Shown piece by piece: positions 5,838 through 47,267 of a DNA stretch of 64,000 bases; the first letter of the stretch is position 1; each line of letters begins with the position of its first letter. The notes beneath the pieces are model-generated. The model searched no databases. It was not told where the DNA came from and saw only the letters and a program-made list of their open reading frames with translations. The stretch spans positions 1 through 64,000 of the IMG/VR virus record IMGVR_UViG_3300028832_000131; one strand, given 5' to 3'. Source of the stretch: a virus (lineage: Duplodnaviria > Caudoviricetes). The position numbers and the translations under genes were made by a program.

Positions 5838-6656
5838 ATGAGTAAAGTGTTTACAAGTGAAGAGTTTGTAGAAAAACTAAAGTGGTTTACTACATTACCA
5901 AATGTTTACTATAGTGGTAAGTATTGGAGTCAGTTAAATGACAAAGGACAATGGAGAAACGACTGTGTGCTTTCCGTAAAAAGTTTGCTTTGGCAATTCA
6001 GTGGCGATAAAAACAAATATCGTGGAGGAACAATATATAAATCAAATGGAGTGGCGGATTTTAGTTGTAATGGTGCATTAAGTTATTGTACTAATGTAAG
6101 TACGAACTTTGCAAACCTAACTGCAGGTGAATATTTATGTATGAAAGGCACTAAGTACAATCATACAGGTATTTACTTGGGTAATGGTAAAGTTTTTGAA
6201 ATGACAAGTTGTAGTGCGTGGGGAGTTAAGAAAGCCGTAATAAGCGATATAGATAGCAAAGGTAATCGTTCTTACAAGGGAGTTAAATGTTTAAAGTGGA
6301 CATATCACGGTAAACTAATATATATAGATTATACTAATGCTCCTGTACCAATGGGGCAAGTTGCTATACTACAAGATACTATGAACAAACAATGGAATTG
6401 TGGCTTAGCCGTAGACAACTCGTTTGGACCACTAACTAGAAAAGCATGTAGAGAGCATCAACTAACTTATGGATGCAATGCTCCGATAATGGTTAAGTGG
6501 TTACAATGTAGATTAAAAGAATTAGGATATAATTTGGAGGCAGATTCGCATTTTGGACCAATTACGAAAAAATGTGTCATTAGTTTCCAGAAAAAAATGC
6601 ACTTAAATCCAGATGCTATAGTGGGTGAAAACACATACAAAGCATTAACAGAGTAG
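5838..6656 (+). CDS. Endolysin (NlpC/P60-CHAP-like catalytic domain plus peptidoglycan-binding repeats)
   Basis: DCV...HTGIYLGNGKV catalytic motifs; C-terminal LAVDxSFGPxT repeats. Confidence 0.8.
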   Translation: MSKVFTSEEFVEKLKWFTTLPNVYYSGKYWSQLNDKGQWRNDCVLSVKSLLWQFSGDKNKYRGGTIYKSNGVADFSCNGALSYCTNVSTNFANLTAGEYLCMKGTKYNHTGIYLGNGKVFEMTSCSAWGVKKAVISDIDSKGNRSYKGVKCLKWTYHGKLIYIDYTNAPVPMGQVAILQDTMNKQWNCGLAVDNSFGPLTRKACREHQLTYGCNAPIMVKWLQCRLKELGYNLEADSHFGPITKKCVISFQKKMHLNPDAIVGENTYKALTE

Positions 6657-6674
6657 GGGAAGAAGGAGTAAAAT

Positions 6675-7001
6675 ATGGTTGAGACGATAATTAAAACGGC
6701 GATTGGTTATATAATACCTGCTGTATTTGGATTTTTAATAGCAAAACTTACAAGTTATAGAAAAAAGAATAACAGTATTAAAATAGCAATAATGACTATT
6801 TTACAAAGTAATATATCAAATACATTCTTCTTATATGACCCTATAAAAAAAATACCTGATTATTTATACAAGAACATATTAAATCAAGACAAGTCTTATA
6901 AAGCATTAGGTGGCAACGATTATATAGAAGCAATAATGCAAAAAATGAAAAAATGGGAAATTATTAGAACAGACATATTGCATGATAAACCTCAAATATG
7001 A
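6675..7001 (+). CDS. Membrane protein, holin-like
   Basis: N-terminal TM helix, directly after the lysin, conserved in B (54028-54354). Confidence 0.5.
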   Translation: MVETIIKTAIGYIIPAVFGFLIAKLTSYRKKNNSIKIAIMTILQSNISNTFFLYDPIKKIPDYLYKNILNQDKSYKALGGNDYIEAIMQKMKKWEIIRTDILHDKPQI

Positions 7002-9741: not shown

Positions 9742-9987
9742 GTGGGGTGTATTATAACGTACCAAAAAGAAAATGGTGAAATACTTTTGAGGCCTAGAAT
9801 TAGTAAATATGACTTATATATTGGTAAAGAAACTTCTATGGGTTGGAAAGTTTTAGATATTCATTATGAGTACAACGGAAATTATTATCACGAAGAAGAT
9901 TATTTTCGAGTTTTAAAAAAAGACAATAACACATATAAACAAAGGATTATTAAGTATATAATTCGAACCGTTAATAGTTGGTTATAA
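9742..9987 (+). CDS. Hypothetical protein with its own promoter
   Basis: Homolog at 57189-57473. Confidence 0.65.
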   Translation: MGCIITYQKENGEILLRPRISKYDLYIGKETSMGWKVLDIHYEYNGNYYHEEDYFRVLKKDNNTYKQRIIKYIIRTVNSWL

Positions 9988-10288
9988 AAAAATGGTGCTT
10001 TAAATCAATTTTAAAGCACGTTTTATATCTTTTGACTAAATATACTATCTTATTTGAAACATTAATTGTGATGAGAATATGGCACTAAAACAAGCATATT
10101 ATGAGTTGAACTATAGTTTGATAGACACTTTAAATGTAAAATAAAAAACTTTTTTACAAAAATGTTTAAAATATATTGACTAACGATTTAAAACGTGATA
10201 TGTTTATTTCGTAGATTAGACGAGGATTCCTCGGCTTATATTTTTAAATTAGGTAGTTCCCATAATATATAGTATGAATATTATTAAC

Positions 10289-13812: not shown

Positions 13813-14292
13813 ATGGACATAAAGAAAAGTTTAAAAATTAATTATAAGTTAGGTAGTAATTATTTACTATTTCCAACTCATGATGGTTGGGTGTTAATGA
13901 GAAGTGGTTCTTATAGACCTATAATGAATAGTAATGACAACACTGATGAACAATTAGATAAGTTTGTAAAGGAACATAGAGAATATAATGCTCTAACAAT
14001 ATTAACTAGATATACAATTATTGCTAATTTAATTATCTTGGGTTTGTGTGTTTTAAATCTATTTAAACACTCAACAACATTATCTTATTTTTGTTGGGGA
14101 GCATTAATGGTTTTACTACCAATGTTAATTTTAATTAATTACATGATAGTAGAAAACAAAAAAGTTTATCACAAAGTGTTAAATGAAGACCAAATATATT
14201 ATGCAAAATTATTAGCGGAAACAAATAAAAAAGAAAGGAAAAGCACTAGGTTAAAAAAGGGAGAAAAGAGGTCTAGTGAAGTACAAAAGTAA
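13813..14292 (+). CDS. Two-TM membrane protein
   Basis: Two hydrophobic segments. Confidence 0.6.
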   Translation: MDIKKSLKINYKLGSNYLLFPTHDGWVLMRSGSYRPIMNSNDNTDEQLDKFVKEHREYNALTILTRYTIIANLIILGLCVLNLFKHSTTLSYFCWGALMVLLPMLILINYMIVENKKVYHKVLNEDQIYYAKLLAETNKKERKSTRLKKGEKRSSEVQK

Positions 14293-31270: not shown

Positions 31271-31505
31271 ACGGAATGAATAGAACCTAGAGCAGAAAAG
31301 TTCCATCACCTCCTCTTAACGTGTGTGGTAATGCTCGACATTCATTCCTCCTTTCTAGTCACAAGTTGACGATTACTAGGGTGCTTAGGCACAAGAGATA
31401 CCGAGGGTTTTGTCGTAGTGTCCTGTAGAAGTGCGTTTGAGATTTTTTAACTTTCTACAAATCGGTATCTCCGATACCTAGTAATACTGAAGGAATACTA
31501 GAAAT
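31271..31505 (+). ncRNA. Putative structured ncRNA with anti-SD loop
   Basis: Stems 31273-81/31340-48, 31372-80/31477-85 and 31395-404/31462-71; loop CAUCACCUCCUCUU. Confidence 0.55.
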
Positions 31506-33617: not shown

Positions 33618-35357
33618 ATGTTAAAGGTAGGGGACAAGATAGAATTAAAACCTAAACAAAATACTCTAAAAGATACGTTTTTAGGCGTTTGTGAGGCTCT
33701 TCGAAGTGATAGATTGTCCGAGGAAGAGAAACTCGAATGGTCTGAGACCGCCTTAAATGTGCTAGAAATGTGGTATAATCAGGAAGATATGGAGTCAATA
33801 GGGGTAGCAAAGAAAAAATTGATTCCTGCCTTATATAATTTAATTAATAAAGGGAGCATAAATAATATGGCTCTCTTTTTTGATTATTATAGACGAGTAT
33901 ACAGCATTTGTGCGAGACGAGATTTTGAGTGTTTTGTAGATTACATAGAATGGGAGCAGCCTAGGAAGGTTTTGGCTAATAGACGAGAGGTATTAAAACC
34001 TTATATTGATGCTTTACAAGAATTAGCCTTTAATCCAAGACTTCATTATGTAATTGTATGCTACCCACCAAGTTTAGGAAAGAGTTATATTGCGACTTTA
34101 TGGGAGGCTTGGGCTTTCGGTATGAGTATAGATAACTCGATTATTCGTATGAGTTATTCTGATGAGTTAGTATTAGGTTTCTCGAGAACGGTTAAAGGAA
34201 TCTTATGTAGTCCTGCTTTTTGTGAGATATTTACTAATTATCAAAGATATGGTGGCAAACCATTTGAAGTTGAAAGAGAGTCGGATTGGAAGATTAAAAA
34301 TGCTAATGTTCCTAAATCTAACTTAATTTCGAGAACGAGAAGTGGTGCTACTACTGGTGAACGTGCGAACTTTGCTATTATCTTTGATGATATGACTAAA
34401 GGAGCAGAAGAGGCTAATAGTGATAGTGTTCACCGTGGTGTTTATGATAAATGGAACACCGAATGGTGGAATAGACGTGACGGAGAACGATGCAAGTTCT
34501 TATTTGTAGGAACACAATGGACTCCTGAAGATATACTTAACCGAATAATTGAAGATAGAAACAAGATAAGTCCTCTTAGAGAGACGGATAATCCTTATGT
34601 GATGAGAAACGAGGACACTATTGTTATAAGAGTACCTTTGTTTGATGCAGAAGGAAAAACTACGTGTTCTGAGGTTTATCCTCAGGAAATAGCCGAGCAA
34701 ATAAGAGATACTACTGACCCGTTCTTGTTTAGTTGTGTTTACCAACAAGACCCTATCGCTCCTACTGGACGAGAGTTGGCTTGGGAGAACTTATCTACTT
34801 ATATTGAGCCTCCTGAGAACTTAGAACCTTACTGTATGGCGGTAATGGATACTAAAAGAAGGGGAAAAGACAACTTAAACATGTTTATTTGCAAACCTGA
34901 TGGCTGTGGTAAGCATTTTTTGTGGGATTGTATATTTAGTAAGAAACCCATGGAAGAGTTATATAACGACATAATAAATAAAGTAATTGACAATAATATT
35001 ACGACTTTAGTAATAGAAAATAATATAGACGTTTCATTAAAACCTTTATTAGAAGGAAAACTTAGTGAACGTGGTTGGTATACTTGCAAAATTGTTGAAT
35101 TATACAACACCAAAAAGAAGGAAGAACGTATAAAAAACAATTTAGGTGGAATCCAAAAAAATATTATCTTTAAAGACAAGTCTATTGTTAAAGCAAATAC
35201 TGATATTGGTAGATTAATGGATAATATAACGAAGTATTCTTTTGATTATCCTAACAAGTTTGATGACGGGCCAGATGGTGCTGCTATGTATAACTCCGAA
35301 ATCGTTGTTGGGCGAAGTATTTTACAAAAACCGAAGGCTGTGCAAAGAATATTTTAA
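33618..35357 (+). CDS. terL: Terminase large subunit
   Basis: PPSLGKS Walker A, IIFDD Walker B, GTQW, YQQDP, FDDGPD nuclease motif. Confidence 0.95.
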   Translation: MLKVGDKIELKPKQNTLKDTFLGVCEALRSDRLSEEEKLEWSETALNVLEMWYNQEDMESIGVAKKKLIPALYNLINKGSINNMALFFDYYRRVYSICARRDFECFVDYIEWEQPRKVLANRREVLKPYIDALQELAFNPRLHYVIVCYPPSLGKSYIATLWEAWAFGMSIDNSIIRMSYSDELVLGFSRTVKGILCSPAFCEIFTNYQRYGGKPFEVERESDWKIKNANVPKSNLISRTRSGATTGERANFAIIFDDMTKGAEEANSDSVHRGVYDKWNTEWWNRRDGERCKFLFVGTQWTPEDILNRIIEDRNKISPLRETDNPYVMRNEDTIVIRVPLFDAEGKTTCSEVYPQEIAEQIRDTTDPFLFSCVYQQDPIAPTGRELAWENLSTYIEPPENLEPYCMAVMDTKRRGKDNLNMFICKPDGCGKHFLWDCIFSKKPMEELYNDIINKVIDNNITTLVIENNIDVSLKPLLEGKLSERGWYTCKIVELYNTKKKEERIKNNLGGIQKNIIFKDKSIVKANTDIGRLMDNITKYSFDYPNKFDDGPDGAAMYNSEIVVGRSILQKPKAVQRIF

Positions 35358-35429
35358 TAAAAAGGTAAAAAGTCATTGGATTTTTAGACCTAAAAAATAG
35401 AATATTTTTTAAATCCGTGGTAGATAAGA

Positions 35430-35510
35430 AGTGAGCAAACGTGATTTCCCTTTGCAGTTTGCTTAGTGCTACACGGGAGCATAACCGTATTTATATAGTT
35501 ATGTTCCCAA
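35430..35510 (+). ncRNA. Two-hairpin RNA (portal leader or sRNA) antisense to late-gene upstream motifs
   Basis: Stem 35433-40/35457-64 with loop AUUUCCCUUUG, linker AGUGCUACAC, stem 35475-85/35498-508. Confidence 0.65.
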
Positions 35511-35539
35511 TTCTATTAGGGGACGGAATGGGTGATAGT

Positions 35540-37141
35540 ATGGACGAAAACAATGTTGAAAATGTTAATCAAAATGTTGAAAATAACAATGAAACTCCTG
35601 TTTCTACTCCAAGTAGACCAACAGACAGGGTACAAAATCCTGTAATGATTGCTCCTGCCGAATTAAGATTATATGGTAGAAAAGTAATTTATGCGGATTT
35701 TCATGCTGACGAAATGAATACTGAGACGATTAAGAAGATTTTAAATGACGTTTTTAATATTCATGTTCAAAATGCAAGTGAAATTGATTATTTAGAAAAG
35801 TATTATAGAGGTTATCAACCTATTATTGGTAAGAAAAAAGAAGTAAGACCTACCATTAATAACACGGTTGTAGAAAATAATGCGTATTTCGTAACAGAGT
35901 TTAAGAAAAGTTATGTATTTGGTGAGCCTATTCAGTACGTTCAACGTGGAGACGTTGCTAACGAAGAGGTTTCAACCTTAAATAGTTATATGTTAGCCAA
36001 AGACAAGTATCCTAAAGATACTGAATTGGCTGAAAGTATATATGTATCAGGAATAGGACACAGAATAGTACTTCCTAGTTCTGATTATGATAGTCCGTTC
36101 GATATTGAAAACTTAGATAGTAAAAATACGTTTGTAGTATATTCTAGTTTCTTACCTCACGAAAGATTGTTTGCTTTCACTTATACAATAGGTGTTAAAG
36201 ATAGCAATTTAAGAGGTAGTATATATACTAAAAACGCTTATTACGAAGTTAATAAGGATTCAGTAAGTTCGGAGTTTAATGTAGTGTTTAAACAAAATCA
36301 TATATTAGGTGATATACCGATATTTGAATATTGTTTAAATAAATCTAGGTTAGGTATTATTGAAGTAATTATGGATTTGTTAAATCAAATAAACCGAATT
36401 ACTTCTGATGAAATTGATGGATTAGAGCAATTTATTCAAAGTATCTTAGTATTTGTAAACCAAGATATAGATGCTGAGGATTATGCTAGTTTACTTGATT
36501 TAGGTGCTGTAAAAATTGCTACTAGCGACCCATCAAGACCTGCTGACTTAAAGTTGCTATCTAATAACATAGACCATGGTAATACTAAGATATTACATGA
36601 TAGGTTATTAAATACTGCTTTACAAATAATTGGTATTCCTAAAAGTAACGAAAGAACGTCTGGTGGAGATACTGGTCAAGCCCGTATGTTATCAGAAGGT
36701 TGGACTATGGCGGATGAACGTGCTAAACAAGACGAAATGCAGTTTAAACGCTGTGCTAAACCAGAGTTAGAGTTAATTTTAAGAATATGTACTTTATCAC
36801 CTTGGAGTGATATTAATTCATTAACTTTGAAACAAGTTGAACAAAAGTTTACTCGTAATAAGAGTGATAACTTCCTAGTTAAGTCTCAAGGATTGATGAA
36901 TCAAATTAATAGTGGAGTTTCACCTGACGTTGCTATGGCTACTACAGGCTTATATAGTGACACTAACGAGGCTTATAACAAATCAATGGCTTTCTATGGA
37001 GGAGTTGATAATTGGATTAAGTTATTTGTAGGTGAGGCTAACAAACAACTTAGGGAAAAGAAGAATGATGAACAGTCTTCTTTAGATAGTGGAGACAACC
37101 CTCCTAAAGAAGGAGAGGAAACTTCAAATGGGGATGAATAA
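35540..37141 (+). CDS. Portal protein, SPP1 gp6-like (start moved from 35441 to ATG 35540)
   Basis: Position after terL; YYRGYQ, FGEPIQY, SGGDTGQA patterns; SD GGGTGA before 35540. Confidence 0.9.
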   Translation: MDENNVENVNQNVENNNETPVSTPSRPTDRVQNPVMIAPAELRLYGRKVIYADFHADEMNTETIKKILNDVFNIHVQNASEIDYLEKYYRGYQPIIGKKKEVRPTINNTVVENNAYFVTEFKKSYVFGEPIQYVQRGDVANEEVSTLNSYMLAKDKYPKDTELAESIYVSGIGHRIVLPSSDYDSPFDIENLDSKNTFVVYSSFLPHERLFAFTYTIGVKDSNLRGSIYTKNAYYEVNKDSVSSEFNVVFKQNHILGDIPIFEYCLNKSRLGIIEVIMDLLNQINRITSDEIDGLEQFIQSILVFVNQDIDAEDYASLLDLGAVKIATSDPSRPADLKLLSNNIDHGNTKILHDRLLNTALQIIGIPKSNERTSGGDTGQARMLSEGWTMADERAKQDEMQFKRCAKPELELILRICTLSPWSDINSLTLKQVEQKFTRNKSDNFLVKSQGLMNQINSGVSPDVAMATTGLYSDTNEAYNKSMAFYGGVDNWIKLFVGEANKQLREKKNDEQSSLDSGDNPPKEGEETSNGDE

Positions 37142-37357: not shown

Positions 37358-37481
37358 CGTAGTTATATCTATTGTGTGGTGCTTATAAAAGCACTAGAAC
37401 TTCTTCTTGTTCTGTTTAGGTAAAAGTCATTAATACGCTATCTATTTTTATAGGTAGCATAGAGTAGATATATAAATAAAT

Positions 37482-37557: not shown

Positions 37558-37683
37558 ATATATCTATTCTATGGTGCTTATAAAAGCATTAAATCTGCTC
37601 ATCATAGAGAGCATAAAATCTATGACACTCTAATAAGTTGGAACGAGGCAACTATAAAAGCGTAAGAGTGGGAGGAAAAATTA

Positions 37684-38320: not shown

Positions 38321-38340
38321 TAGCACTTTTCAAAGGGAAA
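38321..38340 (+). promoter_or_regulatory. Bipartite motif upstream of the capsid RBS
   Basis: TAGCACT-TTT-CAAAGGGAAA. Confidence 0.7.
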
Positions 38341-38364
38341 AAAATATTTTGAGAGGTGATTTTA

Positions 38365-39354
38365 ATGAACACAGGAACAGTACAATCATTTTTAGTTCCT
38401 AACTATTCAGGTTTACTTTACAATAAAGCAAATACTGATACGCCATTCCTTAATTCAATTTCTGGAAGGGTAAAATATACTAACTCAGTTGAGTTCGTTT
38501 GTGGTCAATATTATACGAGTGAAGAAGGTGCAATCCCTAATATTAGTGAAACTGCATCATTAACTGCTCCAGATGCTACTTACGTAACTAGAACTCAATT
38601 AAGTAACGTAACACAAATATTCCATGAAACTGTTGCAGTTAGTTATGCAAAACAATCTAATATGGCAACTTTAGGTGGAGTAAATATTGCAGGACAAGTT
38701 GAAAATCCTACAAACGAGTTAGATTTCCAAACTAACGCAAAAATGAACAAAATTAAGAGAAGTATTGAAAAAACTTTCATCCAAGGTACTTATAACAAGG
38801 CTGCTAGTGATAGCCAAGTAAATAAGACTCGTGGTATTCTTGCTGCTATTACAAGTAACGTAATTGCTGCTAGTGGTGCTGCATTAGACTTATGGTTAGT
38901 TAATGACTTAGTAACTGAAATTAAAGAATCAGGTGGAGACATTTCTAACTTACTAATGCTAGTAAACGCTACTAACCTATTACAATTACATGGTAATGCA
39001 ATAGAAATGGGTATGAAAGTTGGAGAACCTTATGCTAATGCTTATGGTATTATGGTAAGAGATATTCTATTACCTATCGGTTGCGTATTACACTTCGGTT
39101 TAGGTGAGTTTATACCTGACGGAACAGCATTAATCTATAATCCATCAGTTTGTGGACCAGTTGAACAACCAGTTCCAGGAAAAGGTAACTTCTTTAGAGA
39201 AGAACTTGCTAAAGATGGTGCAAGTGTTAAATATCAAATCTTTGGACAAATCGGTCTTGACCATGGACCAGAATGGTATCATGGAAAGATTACTGGTTTA
39301 AGTACTACATTCACTAAACCAGATGGTATCAAAGTTAAGACAGTTAGTGCTTAG
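38365..39354 (+). CDS. Major capsid protein (DUF5309/SU10-like)
   Basis: EEGA, NVTQIFHETVAVS, YQIFGQIGLDHGPEWYHGKITGL motifs. Confidence 0.9.
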   Translation: MNTGTVQSFLVPNYSGLLYNKANTDTPFLNSISGRVKYTNSVEFVCGQYYTSEEGAIPNISETASLTAPDATYVTRTQLSNVTQIFHETVAVSYAKQSNMATLGGVNIAGQVENPTNELDFQTNAKMNKIKRSIEKTFIQGTYNKAASDSQVNKTRGILAAITSNVIAASGAALDLWLVNDLVTEIKESGGDISNLLMLVNATNLLQLHGNAIEMGMKVGEPYANAYGIMVRDILLPIGCVLHFGLGEFIPDGTALIYNPSVCGPVEQPVPGKGNFFREELAKDGASVKYQIFGQIGLDHGPEWYHGKITGLSTTFTKPDGIKVKTVSA

Positions 39355-41783: not shown

Positions 41784-42269
41784 ATGGTAGTAGAAAATAT
41801 ATTTGATAGTGTGTTCTATCCTGCTTTTAAAGAGTATGTAGAGGCACACAACAATTATTCTGCTAAAGTAGTTAAAATTAATCCTGAAGACAGCAAAGTA
41901 TTTCCTATAATACCTGTTAGACTACTTTCTGTATCCAATAGATATAACAATCTAAACTATGGTGAAGAAACTTATTCTTTTGGTATAGAAATTGATATAT
42001 ATGCCGTAGATACAACAGTTGAGGAAGTTGTTACTGAAAATAGCCAATCAACTGTTATACATAAAAAAGTATCTAAAAAAATGGTTTGCGACAATTTGTG
42101 TGAAATAATAGTTGATTATATAAAAGAAACATATCATTTTACAGTAAGAGTAAATCATGATGCTCCTAACATGGATACAAATGTTCACAGGACATTAATT
42201 CGATTAACTGGAGTATTAGATACTAAATATGGAAATGACAATTTAGTAATATATCCAACTTTGAGATAA
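41784..42269 (+). CDS. Tail completion protein
   Basis: Position before the major tail gene. Confidence 0.65.
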   Translation: MVVENIFDSVFYPAFKEYVEAHNNYSAKVVKINPEDSKVFPIIPVRLLSVSNRYNNLNYGEETYSFGIEIDIYAVDTTVEEVVTENSQSTVIHKKVSKKMVCDNLCEIIVDYIKETYHFTVRVNHDAPNMDTNVHRTLIRLTGVLDTKYGNDNLVIYPTLR

Positions 42270-42288
42270 GCACTTCTAAAAAGGGAAA
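42269..42288 (+). promoter_or_regulatory. Bipartite motif upstream of the major tail RBS
   Basis: AGCACT-TCTAA-AAAGGGAAA. Confidence 0.7.
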
Positions 42289-42309
42289 AAATATGAGAGG
42301 TGATTATTA

Positions 42310-42741
42310 ATGATAGACTTAGGTATTGAACTAAGAGTAAAAGCATCAACAGATGCAAAATATCCTTATGCAAAATTAGTAGCAGTTAAAGGTATGCCTG
42401 CAACAGGACAAGCAGGTGGAAACGTAGAAACAACTACTTCAAGTGACCCAGTTAAAGTATATATTCCAGACCGTCCTGATACAGGAGATATGGACTTCAC
42501 TTATAACTATTCACAAGATAACTTAACAGCAGTTCAAGCAGTATGTGATAATACAGTAAAAGATATTCTTATCAAGTTCCCAGACGGAGCAGGATTTGAA
42601 TACAAAGGTGTATGTCAAACTTGGATTAATGAAGAATCAGTTGGTGGAGTTATGGAATGTACTATTCATACAACACCAAGTGTTGCAGGAACTTATCTAA
42701 ACTCAACACAAGTTGCTGCTAAAATAAGTGCAAGTAACTAG
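42310..42741 (+). CDS. Major tail (tube) protein
   Basis: GGNVETTT...YIPDRPDTGDMDFTYNY motif. Confidence 0.85.
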   Translation: MIDLGIELRVKASTDAKYPYAKLVAVKGMPATGQAGGNVETTTSSDPVKVYIPDRPDTGDMDFTYNYSQDNLTAVQAVCDNTVKDILIKFPDGAGFEYKGVCQTWINEESVGGVMECTIHTTPSVAGTYLNSTQVAAKISASN

Positions 42742-42766
42742 GAAATAAAAGAGAGGGAAATTAACG

Positions 42767-43173: not shown

Positions 43174-43557
43174 TTGGCGATAACATACGGTATGTCTGTA
43201 AAAGAGTTTTGGGAAGATAACCCAGACCTGTTCTGGGCATACCGTTTTTCTTATTATAATAATATGAAAAATGAGCAAGAGGCTTTAAACTTCCAATTAT
43301 GGTTACAGGGATTATATTTCCATGAGGCTGTATCTGTAGCATTGTTTAATTCTTTTGGAAAAGGAAAAAAACTTACTTATTCCGACAAGCCTTATATTTT
43401 ATCACAAAAAGAGGAAGAAGAAGAGTATAAGAAACAACAAAAGAAGTTAGAAATACAAATTAAAAATCGTATTTCGGAAATGCAAAAGATAAAGGGCAAA
43501 GAAGAAGAGGCATTACCAAATCAAAAGGGAGAAGGTGGTGAAAACAATAATGGATGA
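43174..43557 (+). CDS. Tail chaperone C-terminal (-1 frameshift) segment
   Basis: The -1 frame is open from 43045 into this ORF. Confidence 0.75.
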   Translation: MAITYGMSVKEFWEDNPDLFWAYRFSYYNNMKNEQEALNFQLWLQGLYFHEAVSVALFNSFGKGKKLTYSDKPYILSQKEEEEEYKKQQKKLEIQIKNRISEMQKIKGKEEEALPNQKGEGGENNNG

Positions 43558-46767: not shown

Positions 46768-46795
46768 GTGTAGCACTTTCTTTTAAAGGGAAATT
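46768..46795 (+). promoter_or_regulatory. Bipartite motif upstream of the distal-tail RBS
   Basis: GTGTAGCACT-TTCTTTT-AAAGGGAAATT. Confidence 0.7.
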
Positions 46796-47267
46796 GAAAG
46801 ATGGTGATATGATGATACAAGAATATACTCAAGGAGTTTATACTTATAAGTTAGCAAGCCCATCTGTAGTAATATCTAAAGTTAAAATAAACAACGTAGA
46901 TATATCTAAATATTTATCTAACAACTCTCAAGTTGGTTGGTATGACGTTTCTAGGAATAGTGGACGTGATACTACTACTGCTGACGGGAAAATGATACTT
47001 AATGTTATATCTACTAAATATAGACTTGATTTAGTAACTAGACAATTAACTCGTGATGAAATAGTTGATTTCTTTGCACAAATTAAATTACGTCCTACTA
47101 TGGAAGTAAAGTTTTTAAATCCATTTACTAATACTTGGAAAACAATAAATGCTTATAGAGGAGATAGAATTGCTCAGGCTGCTTATCCAGTTCAAGTAAC
47201 TGAGGGAGTAAATAATGCTTTGGTTGAAATCTTTAATCCAGTATCAATAGCATTAATAGAATTGTAG
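46794..47267 (+). CDS. Distal-tail-like protein
   Basis: Directly after the tape measure gene; SRNSGRDT...YRGDR motif. Confidence 0.65.
   Translation: MKDGDMMIQEYTQGVYTYKLASPSVVISKVKINNVDISKYLSNNSQVGWYDVSRNSGRDTTTADGKMILNVISTKYRLDLVTRQLTRDEIVDFFAQIKLRPTMEVKFLNPFTNTWKTINAYRGDRIAQAAYPVQVTEGVNNALVEIFNPVSIALIEL

Follow-up and report, generated by a model that had tools for sequence, protein, structure and literature searches.

A conserved two-hairpin RNA between the terL and portal genes of gut and rumen phages and its predicted two-part pairing with virion-gene leaders

The question raised by the gap between terL and the portal gene of this phage is whether it gives rise to an RNA that pairs with the leaders of capsid and tail genes, and what such pairing would do to these genes. 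The window, i.e. the whole stretch of 64,000 nt analysed in this study, represents the first 64 kb of a 74,104-b IMG/VR virus record, in which two siphovirus-like genomes are joined, a partial one (1 to about 28.3 kb) made up of the tail-to-early part and a complete one (about 28.3-74.1 kb). Window positions 1-28300, from the tail fibre to the early genes, run parallel to record positions 47022-73961 with 66-85% identity between the partial genome and the matching part of the complete one, and this one-and-a-half-genome record suggests the co-assembly of two related phages or a chimera rather than a terminal repeat. The locus under study, hereafter the guide RNA, sits in the complete genome, where terL (33618-35357) is followed by a gap of 182 nt, the portal gene, a tRNA-Trp, a scaffold-like gene and the major capsid gene (MCP), and then by a glycosyltransferase-like gene, head-tail genes, the tail tube gene (MTP), the chaperone, the tape-measure gene (TMP) and Dit. 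A megablast search of INPHARED with the terL-portal-capsid region gave no match. During annotation, a portal start at GTG 35441, which would add a 33-codon N-terminal extension, was ruled out, as the gap length varies out of frame in relatives and the PHROG portal profile match begins only at residue 35 of the longer ORF.

We observed that positions 35425-35515 fold into two hairpins with -30.5 kcal/mol and a z-score of -5.6, and none of 200 shuffles folded equally well (Table 1). These are the two hairpins that an earlier sequence-only reading of this DNA had described, and all the letters it quoted were correct at the coordinates given for them. The loop of hairpin 1 carries AUUUCCCUUUG, with the core UUCCCUU, and the linker between the hairpins is written AGUGCUAC in its near-invariant form and AGUGCUAC(AC) in its extended form. 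Relatives were collected in three sets, comprising 27 IMG/VR loci obtained with the portal protein as query, 20 element-bearing prophages out of 40 loci with a related portal, located in gut and rumen MAGs of 1.2-1.6 Mb that are labelled Bacilli, Bacillota or Tenericutes, and 63 metagenome loci. More than 100 related loci of phages and prophages of Bacillota from the gut and rumen were thereby found to carry the guide RNA, and the gap RNA is present in every relative whose portal is at least 55% identical. The covariance model built from it (R1) matched 41 of 41 related loci with a single copy in each, and in the model-based alignment of 40 distinct sequences 98.1% of the cells were paired and 11 pairs displayed double changes, as against 88% paired cells in shuffles and 38-57% when the partners were slid. 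Compensatory double changes occur in seven of the eight pairs of the hairpin 1 stem, whose sequence is wholly different between clades with the pairing kept. The loop core UUCCCUU is invariant across relatives save L119, L108, L122 and L123, and variants of the linker are accompanied by matching changes in the targets. Hairpin 2 shows no sequence change within the main clade, and co-variation of its arms appears in the distant clade L172-L177 (55-59% portal identity). Its conserved G.U pairs are valid on the + strand only, as they would be A.C on the opposite strand, and the folded strand is therefore the + strand.

In line with the sequence-only reading, which did not recognise the RNA as a described family, Rfam 15 gave no family for the guide RNA at either gathering or E-value thresholds. 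At the gathering threshold tRNA alone was returned, and the best sub-threshold match over the terL-portal gap reached 16 bits, where 49.8 would be required. Searching 151 genomes of the host order with the guide RNA model disclosed no loci beyond two already known. As a side observation, the 5' half of hairpin 2 (GGGAGCAUAACCGUA, window 35475-35489) is unchanged throughout the main clade while the stem of hairpin 1 drifts freely, which suggests an additional sequence-specific role such as a protein partner; a search of the genome for sites complementary to hairpin 2 found nothing specific.

Table 1. Coordinates of the guide RNA locus and of the target leaders in the window (limits of the RNA and all pairings are predicted)
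Feature	Position	Strand	Remarks
Candidate extended -10 element TGgTAGATA	35418..35426	+	ends about 7 nt before hairpin 1
Guide RNA, predicted, about 85 nt	35433..35516	+	hairpin 1, linker, hairpin 2, U-rich tail
Hairpin 1	35433..35464	+	stem 35433-40 with 35457-64; loop 35441-56 shows seed 1
Linker, seed 2 (AGUGCUACAC)	35465..35474	+	near-invariant among relatives
Hairpin 2 and U-rich tail, terminator-like	35475..35518	+	35475-85 with 35498-508
GGGGAC	35519..35524	+	just before portal SD; can pair with GUUCCC of the 3' arm of hairpin 2
Portal gene	35540..37141	+	start ATG 35540, SD GGGUGAU; PHROG portal match, frame check
MCP leader element	38321..38367	+	A-box 38321-27; B-box 38331-40; likely start ATG 38365
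MCP cis hairpin	38324-35 with 38347-58	+	would sequester SD 38351-60
MTP (tail tube) leader element	42269..42312	+	A-box 42269-74; B-box 42280-88; start ATG 42310
MTP cis hairpin	42271-77 with 42296-302	+	SD 42295-304
TMP leader element, degenerate in this phage	43509..43552	+	A-box GGCAUU; B-box 43524-31; likely start ATG 43550
TMP cis hairpin	43511-17 with 43534-40	+	CAUUACC with GGUGGUG
Dit leader element	46768..46814	+	A-box 46768-77; B-box 46785-95; likely start ATG 46812
Dit cis hairpin	46774-46806	+	takes in SD GGUGA 46803-07

The surroundings of the guide suggest how it may be transcribed. Besides the candidate -10 element of this phage, a -10-like hexamer, mostly TATAAA, precedes the stem of hairpin 1 by 8-9 nt in most relatives, L172 displays TTGACA-17-TATAAA upstream of the guide, and hairpin 2 in relatives has a G+C stem base followed by a U-rich tract. 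The guide therefore looks like a free-standing sRNA gene with its own putative promoter and terminator and with read-through into the portal gene, and the conserved -10 box together with the terminator-like hairpin suggest a primary transcript rather than an RNase P product. In the 60-90 nt 5' of the sRNA in relatives (e.g. L009, L116, L121 and L123), a co-varying hairpin followed by UUUUAUAC stands directly after terL; it resembles a terL terminator, and the sRNA thus seems to be placed between two terminators. On the other side, the pairing of GGGGAC with GUUCCC (window 35498-35524) is an alternative one in which the U-tract would form a loop, and this complementarity ahead of the portal SD co-varies with the 3' arm of hairpin 2, reading GGAAC in L004, GGGGG in L003, GGGAAU, and GGAAGC in L177. 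Since this G-rich segment before the SD resembles a B-box, the guide may also have the portal leader as a target in cis. Moreover, the prophage L124 (about 6530-6690) harbors an extra insert of about 150 nt, structured in appearance, between the sRNA terminator and the portal SD.

The sequence-only reading had claimed that a + strand RNA from this gap pairs in two parts with leaders of capsid and tail genes, and the sites it named before MCP, MTP and Dit are present as described. The reverse complements of loop and linker occur there in antiparallel order between the upstream stop codon and the SD, the A-box (GUAGCACU) being the complement of the linker and the B-box (AAGGGAA) that of the loop. 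The distance between the guide and its targets is 1.9-11 kb. Pairing with the guide would extend over 7+10 bp at MCP, 6+9 bp at MTP and 10+10 bp plus one G.U at Dit, with helix energies in the window of -7.5 to -15.8 kcal/mol for the linker and -11.5 to -14.5 kcal/mol for the loop. The wobble site noted before TMP corresponds to an element whose A-box differs by two wobble-compatible changes in this phage and which is complete in most relatives, and the element found before terL in relatives is absent here. By contrast, the half sites claimed at 42753 (chaperone) and 39370 (glycosyltransferase) proved to be the SDs of those genes.

With regard to chance, the expectation that the matches would surpass shuffled controls was borne out in part. 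When the + strand of the 74-kb record was searched for linker complements of 6 nt or longer followed within 14 nt by loop complements of 8 nt or longer, three sites were obtained against a mean of 0.16 in 200 Markov simulations, and all three lie between a stop codon and an SD. In an energy scan of the genome, however, the Dit site alone stands out, with -30.3 kcal/mol against best matches of shuffled guides that average -25.0 kcal/mol (sd 2.4), one of 40 shuffled guides reaching the value of Dit; the MCP site is about the seventh best cluster, MTP and TMP are ordinary, and MCP and MTP are comparable to some sites in coding regions. The evidence for the sites from the single genome is modest and would by itself leave the claim open, and it is the comparative data that establish them.

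What the sequence-only reading had not recognised is that the target leaders are themselves hairpins predicted to sequester the SD, which would give the pairing a concrete consequence. When the leaders of MCP, MTP, Dit and the degenerate TMP were folded singly, the CAC(U) of the A-box paired with the GGUG of the gene's own SD, and the AAGGGAA of the B-box fell within or adjoining the apical loop, with a part of it in the stem in the MCP leader of the window. The longest-ORF starts at 38356 (MCP, GTG), 43535 (TMP, GTG) and 46794 (Dit, TTG) lie inside these SD hairpins, and the downstream ATG codons listed in Table 1 are the likely true starts.

Some further elements of the window were noticed during this analysis. 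In the partial genome, an additional site resembling A-box and B-box precedes a small early ORF at 14242-14290, with a hairpin of its own (CACUAGG with downstream CUAGUG) and no counterpart seen in the complete genome. The portal-scaffold gap contains two near-identical hairpins (GGUGCUU, AUAA, AAGCAC) at 37378-37400 and 37572-37595, which bracket a structured segment and the tRNA-Trp and whose arms resemble the guide linker and the A-box. At 31304-31357, 16S-like anti-SD sequences complementary to the GAGGUGAU-type SD of MCP and MTP were observed, and the flanks retrieved for the relatives did not contain them.

To survey the targets across relatives, gene starts were set by tblastn protein homology and not by the motif, so the target set is unbiased by the motif, and an element was counted in unique leaders when an A-box with at most two mismatches to GUAGCACU was followed by a B-box. 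The element was detected in 51 of 51 MCP leaders, 41 of 47 MTP, 37 of 43 TMP, 26 of 26 Dit and 38 of 58 terL leaders, so that the terL and tape-measure genes are regular targets in relatives as well. The stems between the boxes vary highly among genes and phages with the pairing retained, and the spacing between A-box and B-box ranges from 3 to about 16 nt. The leader hairpins predicted in about 144-194 unique leaders have mean energies of -9 to -12 kcal/mol and z-scores of -2.9 to -4.2. RNAalifold gave no consensus on a MAFFT alignment that held MCP leaders with stems of unequal length and one spurious row, and leader structure was assessed by per-sequence folding and homology-anchored tallies. 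For 194 leaders, opening of the SD core was predicted to cost 5.3 kcal/mol, and 0.5 kcal/mol when both boxes were held, a drop that is partly built into the constraint, as a hairpin must open when one of its arms is held. The distance from the end of the B-box to the start codon has medians of 19-26 nt, mostly outside the 30S footprint, and both boxes precede the SD, being placed on the anti-SD arm and the loop, in line with the earlier statement that the sites do not cover the SDs.

The guide and its targets were always either both present or both absent. Phages with 31-46% portal identity that lack the guide also lack the target leaders, and no relative was seen that keeps the targets and has lost the guide. 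These more distant phages have a different terL-portal leader. In L184 (about 9900-10060), L186, L190, L193, L196, L197, L208 and L210, with portals 40-46% identical, it is a structured leader in which the ribosome-binding site of the portal gene (AUGGAGGAGAUA) is repeated in one hairpin arm (AUGGAGGGAUUA), the opposite arm is complementary to either copy, and a terminator-like hairpin comes next; this arrangement looks like a switch between SD mimic and anti-SD.

Changes in the guide are matched by changes in its targets, a co-variation for which the sequence-only reading had proposed a test in relatives. As the guide is near-invariant, this co-variation rests on three or four lineages. In L119/L125 the linker carries CUAUAC in place of CUACAC, and three of the four targets (the MCP, MTP and TMP leaders) read GUAUAGCAC, which occurs in none of 86 extended targets of canonical guides (Fisher p = 3e-5, the counts here and below not being phylogenetically independent), and the fourth, the terL leader, keeps G and would form a G.U pair. 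The loop of the same guides is UUCCUU, with two C instead of three, and two of four target loops (MCP and MTP) read AAGGAA versus 2 of about 130 elsewhere. Likewise, the loop of L108 contains CCCUG, and Dit and TMP, two of its four targets, carry CAGGG versus 1 of about 130 elsewhere. In L172-175 a linker A is replaced by G and the TMP leaders read GUAGCACC, where U is found in 18 of 20 elsewhere, and in L113/L029, whose guides are without that linker A, the matching target base is U, C, G, C or G and is no longer conserved.

The spectrum of target changes is also directional. Among 193 leaders, 39 of the 40 substitutions in the A-box GUAGCACU are A to G (26) or C to U (13), and G4 is invariant; for the changes at C5, A6 and C7 the cis hairpin explains the wobble compatibility equally well, and the pattern includes A3 and G4, which lie outside that hairpin. 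Such a wobble-tolerant spectrum is predicted by pairing to a fixed RNA partner and not by a protein-recognised DNA motif. The central claim of two-part pairing is thus supported by five lines, namely the RNA itself with its stem co-variation, about 190 leaders with both boxes, guide-target co-variation in three lineages, the G.U spectrum and the co-occurrence, and we regard it as highly probable that RNA-RNA pairing of guide and leaders is under selection.

Regarding the mechanism, the gap would yield a + strand sRNA of the extent given in Table 1 from its own sigma-70-type promoter, ending at a leaky intrinsic terminator, with the loop UUCCCUU of hairpin 1 and the linker AGUGCUAC(AC) as its seeds. 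Without the sRNA, the leader hairpin would lock the SD through CAC(U) with GGUG and expose AAGGGAA in its apical loop. The loop of hairpin 1 would then kiss the target loop, the guide linker would invade the base of the target stem, and the sRNA would finally hold the anti-SD arm, leaving the SD free and translation on. Action in trans is favored by the terL target, which lies upstream of the RNA gene. If pairing is accepted, activation is its probable outcome on these folding predictions, and the complete proposal, in which an sRNA expressed from this gap pairs in two parts in trans with late-gene leaders, releases their SDs and activates their translation, is on balance a probable one. That the RNA of about 85 nt licenses the whole virion module, by kissing and invading SD hairpins which all bear the same two-part address and lock the chief independent ribosome entry sites (terL, capsid, tail tube, tape measure and Dit), so that these are unlocked together, is put forward tentatively, as a possibility slightly short of an even chance.

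The same two-part pairing could also serve an sRNA that represses the late-gene leaders and is made in the lysogen as well, either as a fail-safe against leaky virion expression or for the exclusion of related superinfecting phages in the style of P1 C4, P4 CI and BTP1 STnc6030. The sigma-70-like, housekeeping-type promoter and the terminator point to an RNA independent of late transcription, which would suit a lysogen; the phages are temperate, with prophages in the 1.2-1.6 Mb MAGs; most known phage antisense RNAs repress; and in some leaders the B-box ends merely 12-17 nt from the start codon. However, the complementarity of the guide extends to the anti-SD arm and the loop and never to the SD or start codon, the SD is released in silico, and the hairpins already sequester it without any RNA. 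The seed is, moreover, near-invariant across 55-88% portal identity, whereas exclusion and immunity systems are expected to diversify into specificity types, and its deep conservation argues against such a role. Repression is therefore considered unlikely, and activation is preferred.

Pairing might instead guide the processing or stabilisation of RNA, with the duplexes or a four-way junction as a site for a double-strand- or structure-specific RNase, so that the late polycistronic mRNA is cut before each major gene or the new 5' ends are protected. The position of the sites just past the upstream stop codon, a natural boundary of translational units, and the two helices of 7-11 bp, each worth -7.5 to -15.8 kcal/mol, would fit such a role, but the helices are short for RNase III, and the overlap of the A-box with the SD-pairing bases in every gene class would be left unexplained, which makes this reading improbable. 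The idea of an external guide for RNase P through a tRNA-like four-way junction was dropped, as no CCA-like tail follows the linker.

Very improbable is a reading without any RNA-RNA pairing, in which the leader holds an inverted copy of a motif (GUGUAGCAC and AAGGGAA) read by a phage protein on DNA or RNA, and the coordinated changes reflect site-protein co-evolution or gene conversion among repeats. The minus strand of the guide leader does have the layout of a target, a box followed by a hairpin with an AAGGGAA loop, and co-evolution of site and protein would likewise alter all copies jointly. Yet hairpins 1 and 2 are rich in G.U pairs that are valid on the + strand only, there is always exactly one inverted copy, fused to a terminator-like hairpin, and the spacing between the boxes is variable, the point on which the sequence-only reading had disfavored a protein-bound DNA box. 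The target changes are likewise G.U-compatible and directional (A to G, never G to A), also outside the cis hairpin, and A to G changes in the guide are tolerated facing an unchanged U. Lastly, it is extremely improbable that the target hairpins are only translational-coupling devices opened by the upstream terminating ribosome, with the leader complementarity of no consequence, since this leaves unexplained the invariant flank GUAG, the loop AAGGGAA, their complement in the leader and the co-variation, even if SD-sequestering hairpins are the textbook means of coupling and the 5' arm starts at most 15 nt from the upstream stop codon in MCP, MTP and Dit, and coupling is in any case compatible with gating by a small RNA.

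The preferred reading, pairing that frees the SD, can be compared with several known systems. The C4 and CI RNAs are excised by RNase P from an operon leader, act on one immunity operon by masking a ribosome-binding site or causing premature termination, and define immunity types. These antisense RNAs of P1/P7 and P4 were reportedly described by Citron and Schuster in 1990 and by Forti, Sabbattini, Deho and colleagues in 1995. The parallel that the sequence-only reading drew with them stands for the two-part pairing and fails for the targets. Like C4 and CI, the guide would be a short phage RNA in the same orientation as its targets, pairing through two short separated segments of a folded RNA, and in its case the two exposed segments and their two target segments co-vary. 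Unlike them, it appears to have its own predicted promoter and terminator and not to be excised from a leader, it would address four or five virion-gene leaders at most 11 kb away, one of them upstream, and it would pair with the anti-SD arm and not the SD, with a seed that is conserved and not diversified. Masking of a ribosome-binding site or premature termination in an immunity operon finds no counterpart here, as the boxes stand upstream of the SD and the targets are virion genes, and no homology of the guide to described C4/CI families was found via Rfam 15.

The anti-antisense activators, such as DsrA, RprA and ArcZ on rpoS, RNAIII on hla and GlmZ on glmS, are mostly single-site, host-encoded and, in enterobacteria, Hfq-dependent, and IsrK of the prophage Gifsy-1 has been grouped with them. 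The guide would share the logic of DsrA and rpoS, as both the SD sequestered in a leader hairpin and the pairing of an sRNA with the opposing arm, which frees the SD, are predicted here. It would differ from these activators in being two-part (loop-loop contact plus strand invasion), phage-encoded and directed at a virion-gene regulon, with an activation that we infer from the predicted structures. CopA-CopT of R1 and RNAI-RNAII of ColE1 are kissing-loop plasmid antisense systems, cis-encoded, fully complementary and repressing. As in CopA-CopT, complementary 7-nt apical loops are present on both hairpins (UUCCCUU and AAGGGAA) next to a single-stranded segment, and a four-way junction would be possible; in contrast to the full complementarity of a cis-encoded RNA, which is not found here, the guide is trans-encoded, its complementarity is limited to two boxes, and it has several targets.

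Late-gene control in phages is known mainly as transcription, through activators, antiterminators and sigma factors, together with local translational coupling. In the Salmonella prophage BTP1, STnc6030 is a 786-nt cis-antisense RNA to the tailspike gene that represses it and mediates superinfection exclusion (PMC12197685). The guide would resemble it as a prophage RNA acting on the mRNA of virion genes, whereas STnc6030 is long, acts in cis on one gene and represses. A 2025 review of phage small RNAs and the further literature searched name no RNA that acts on leaders of capsid, terminase or portal genes.

The guide system would be a case of base-pairing RNA control, and its new part would be the phage virion-gene regulon. 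The leader-guide pair is small enough for reporter fusions despite the uncultured hosts, and the guide element is a compact marker of this phage group in gut and rumen metagenomes. If the proposal is true, it would offer a clean natural case of multi-target activation by kissing and strand invasion in Gram-positive-type hosts. A phage sRNA with a two-part seed and a regulon of virion leaders would then represent a new layer of coordinate post-transcriptional control for assembly genes, and the phages of uncultured small-genome gut Bacillota would possess a post-transcriptional late-gene regulon.
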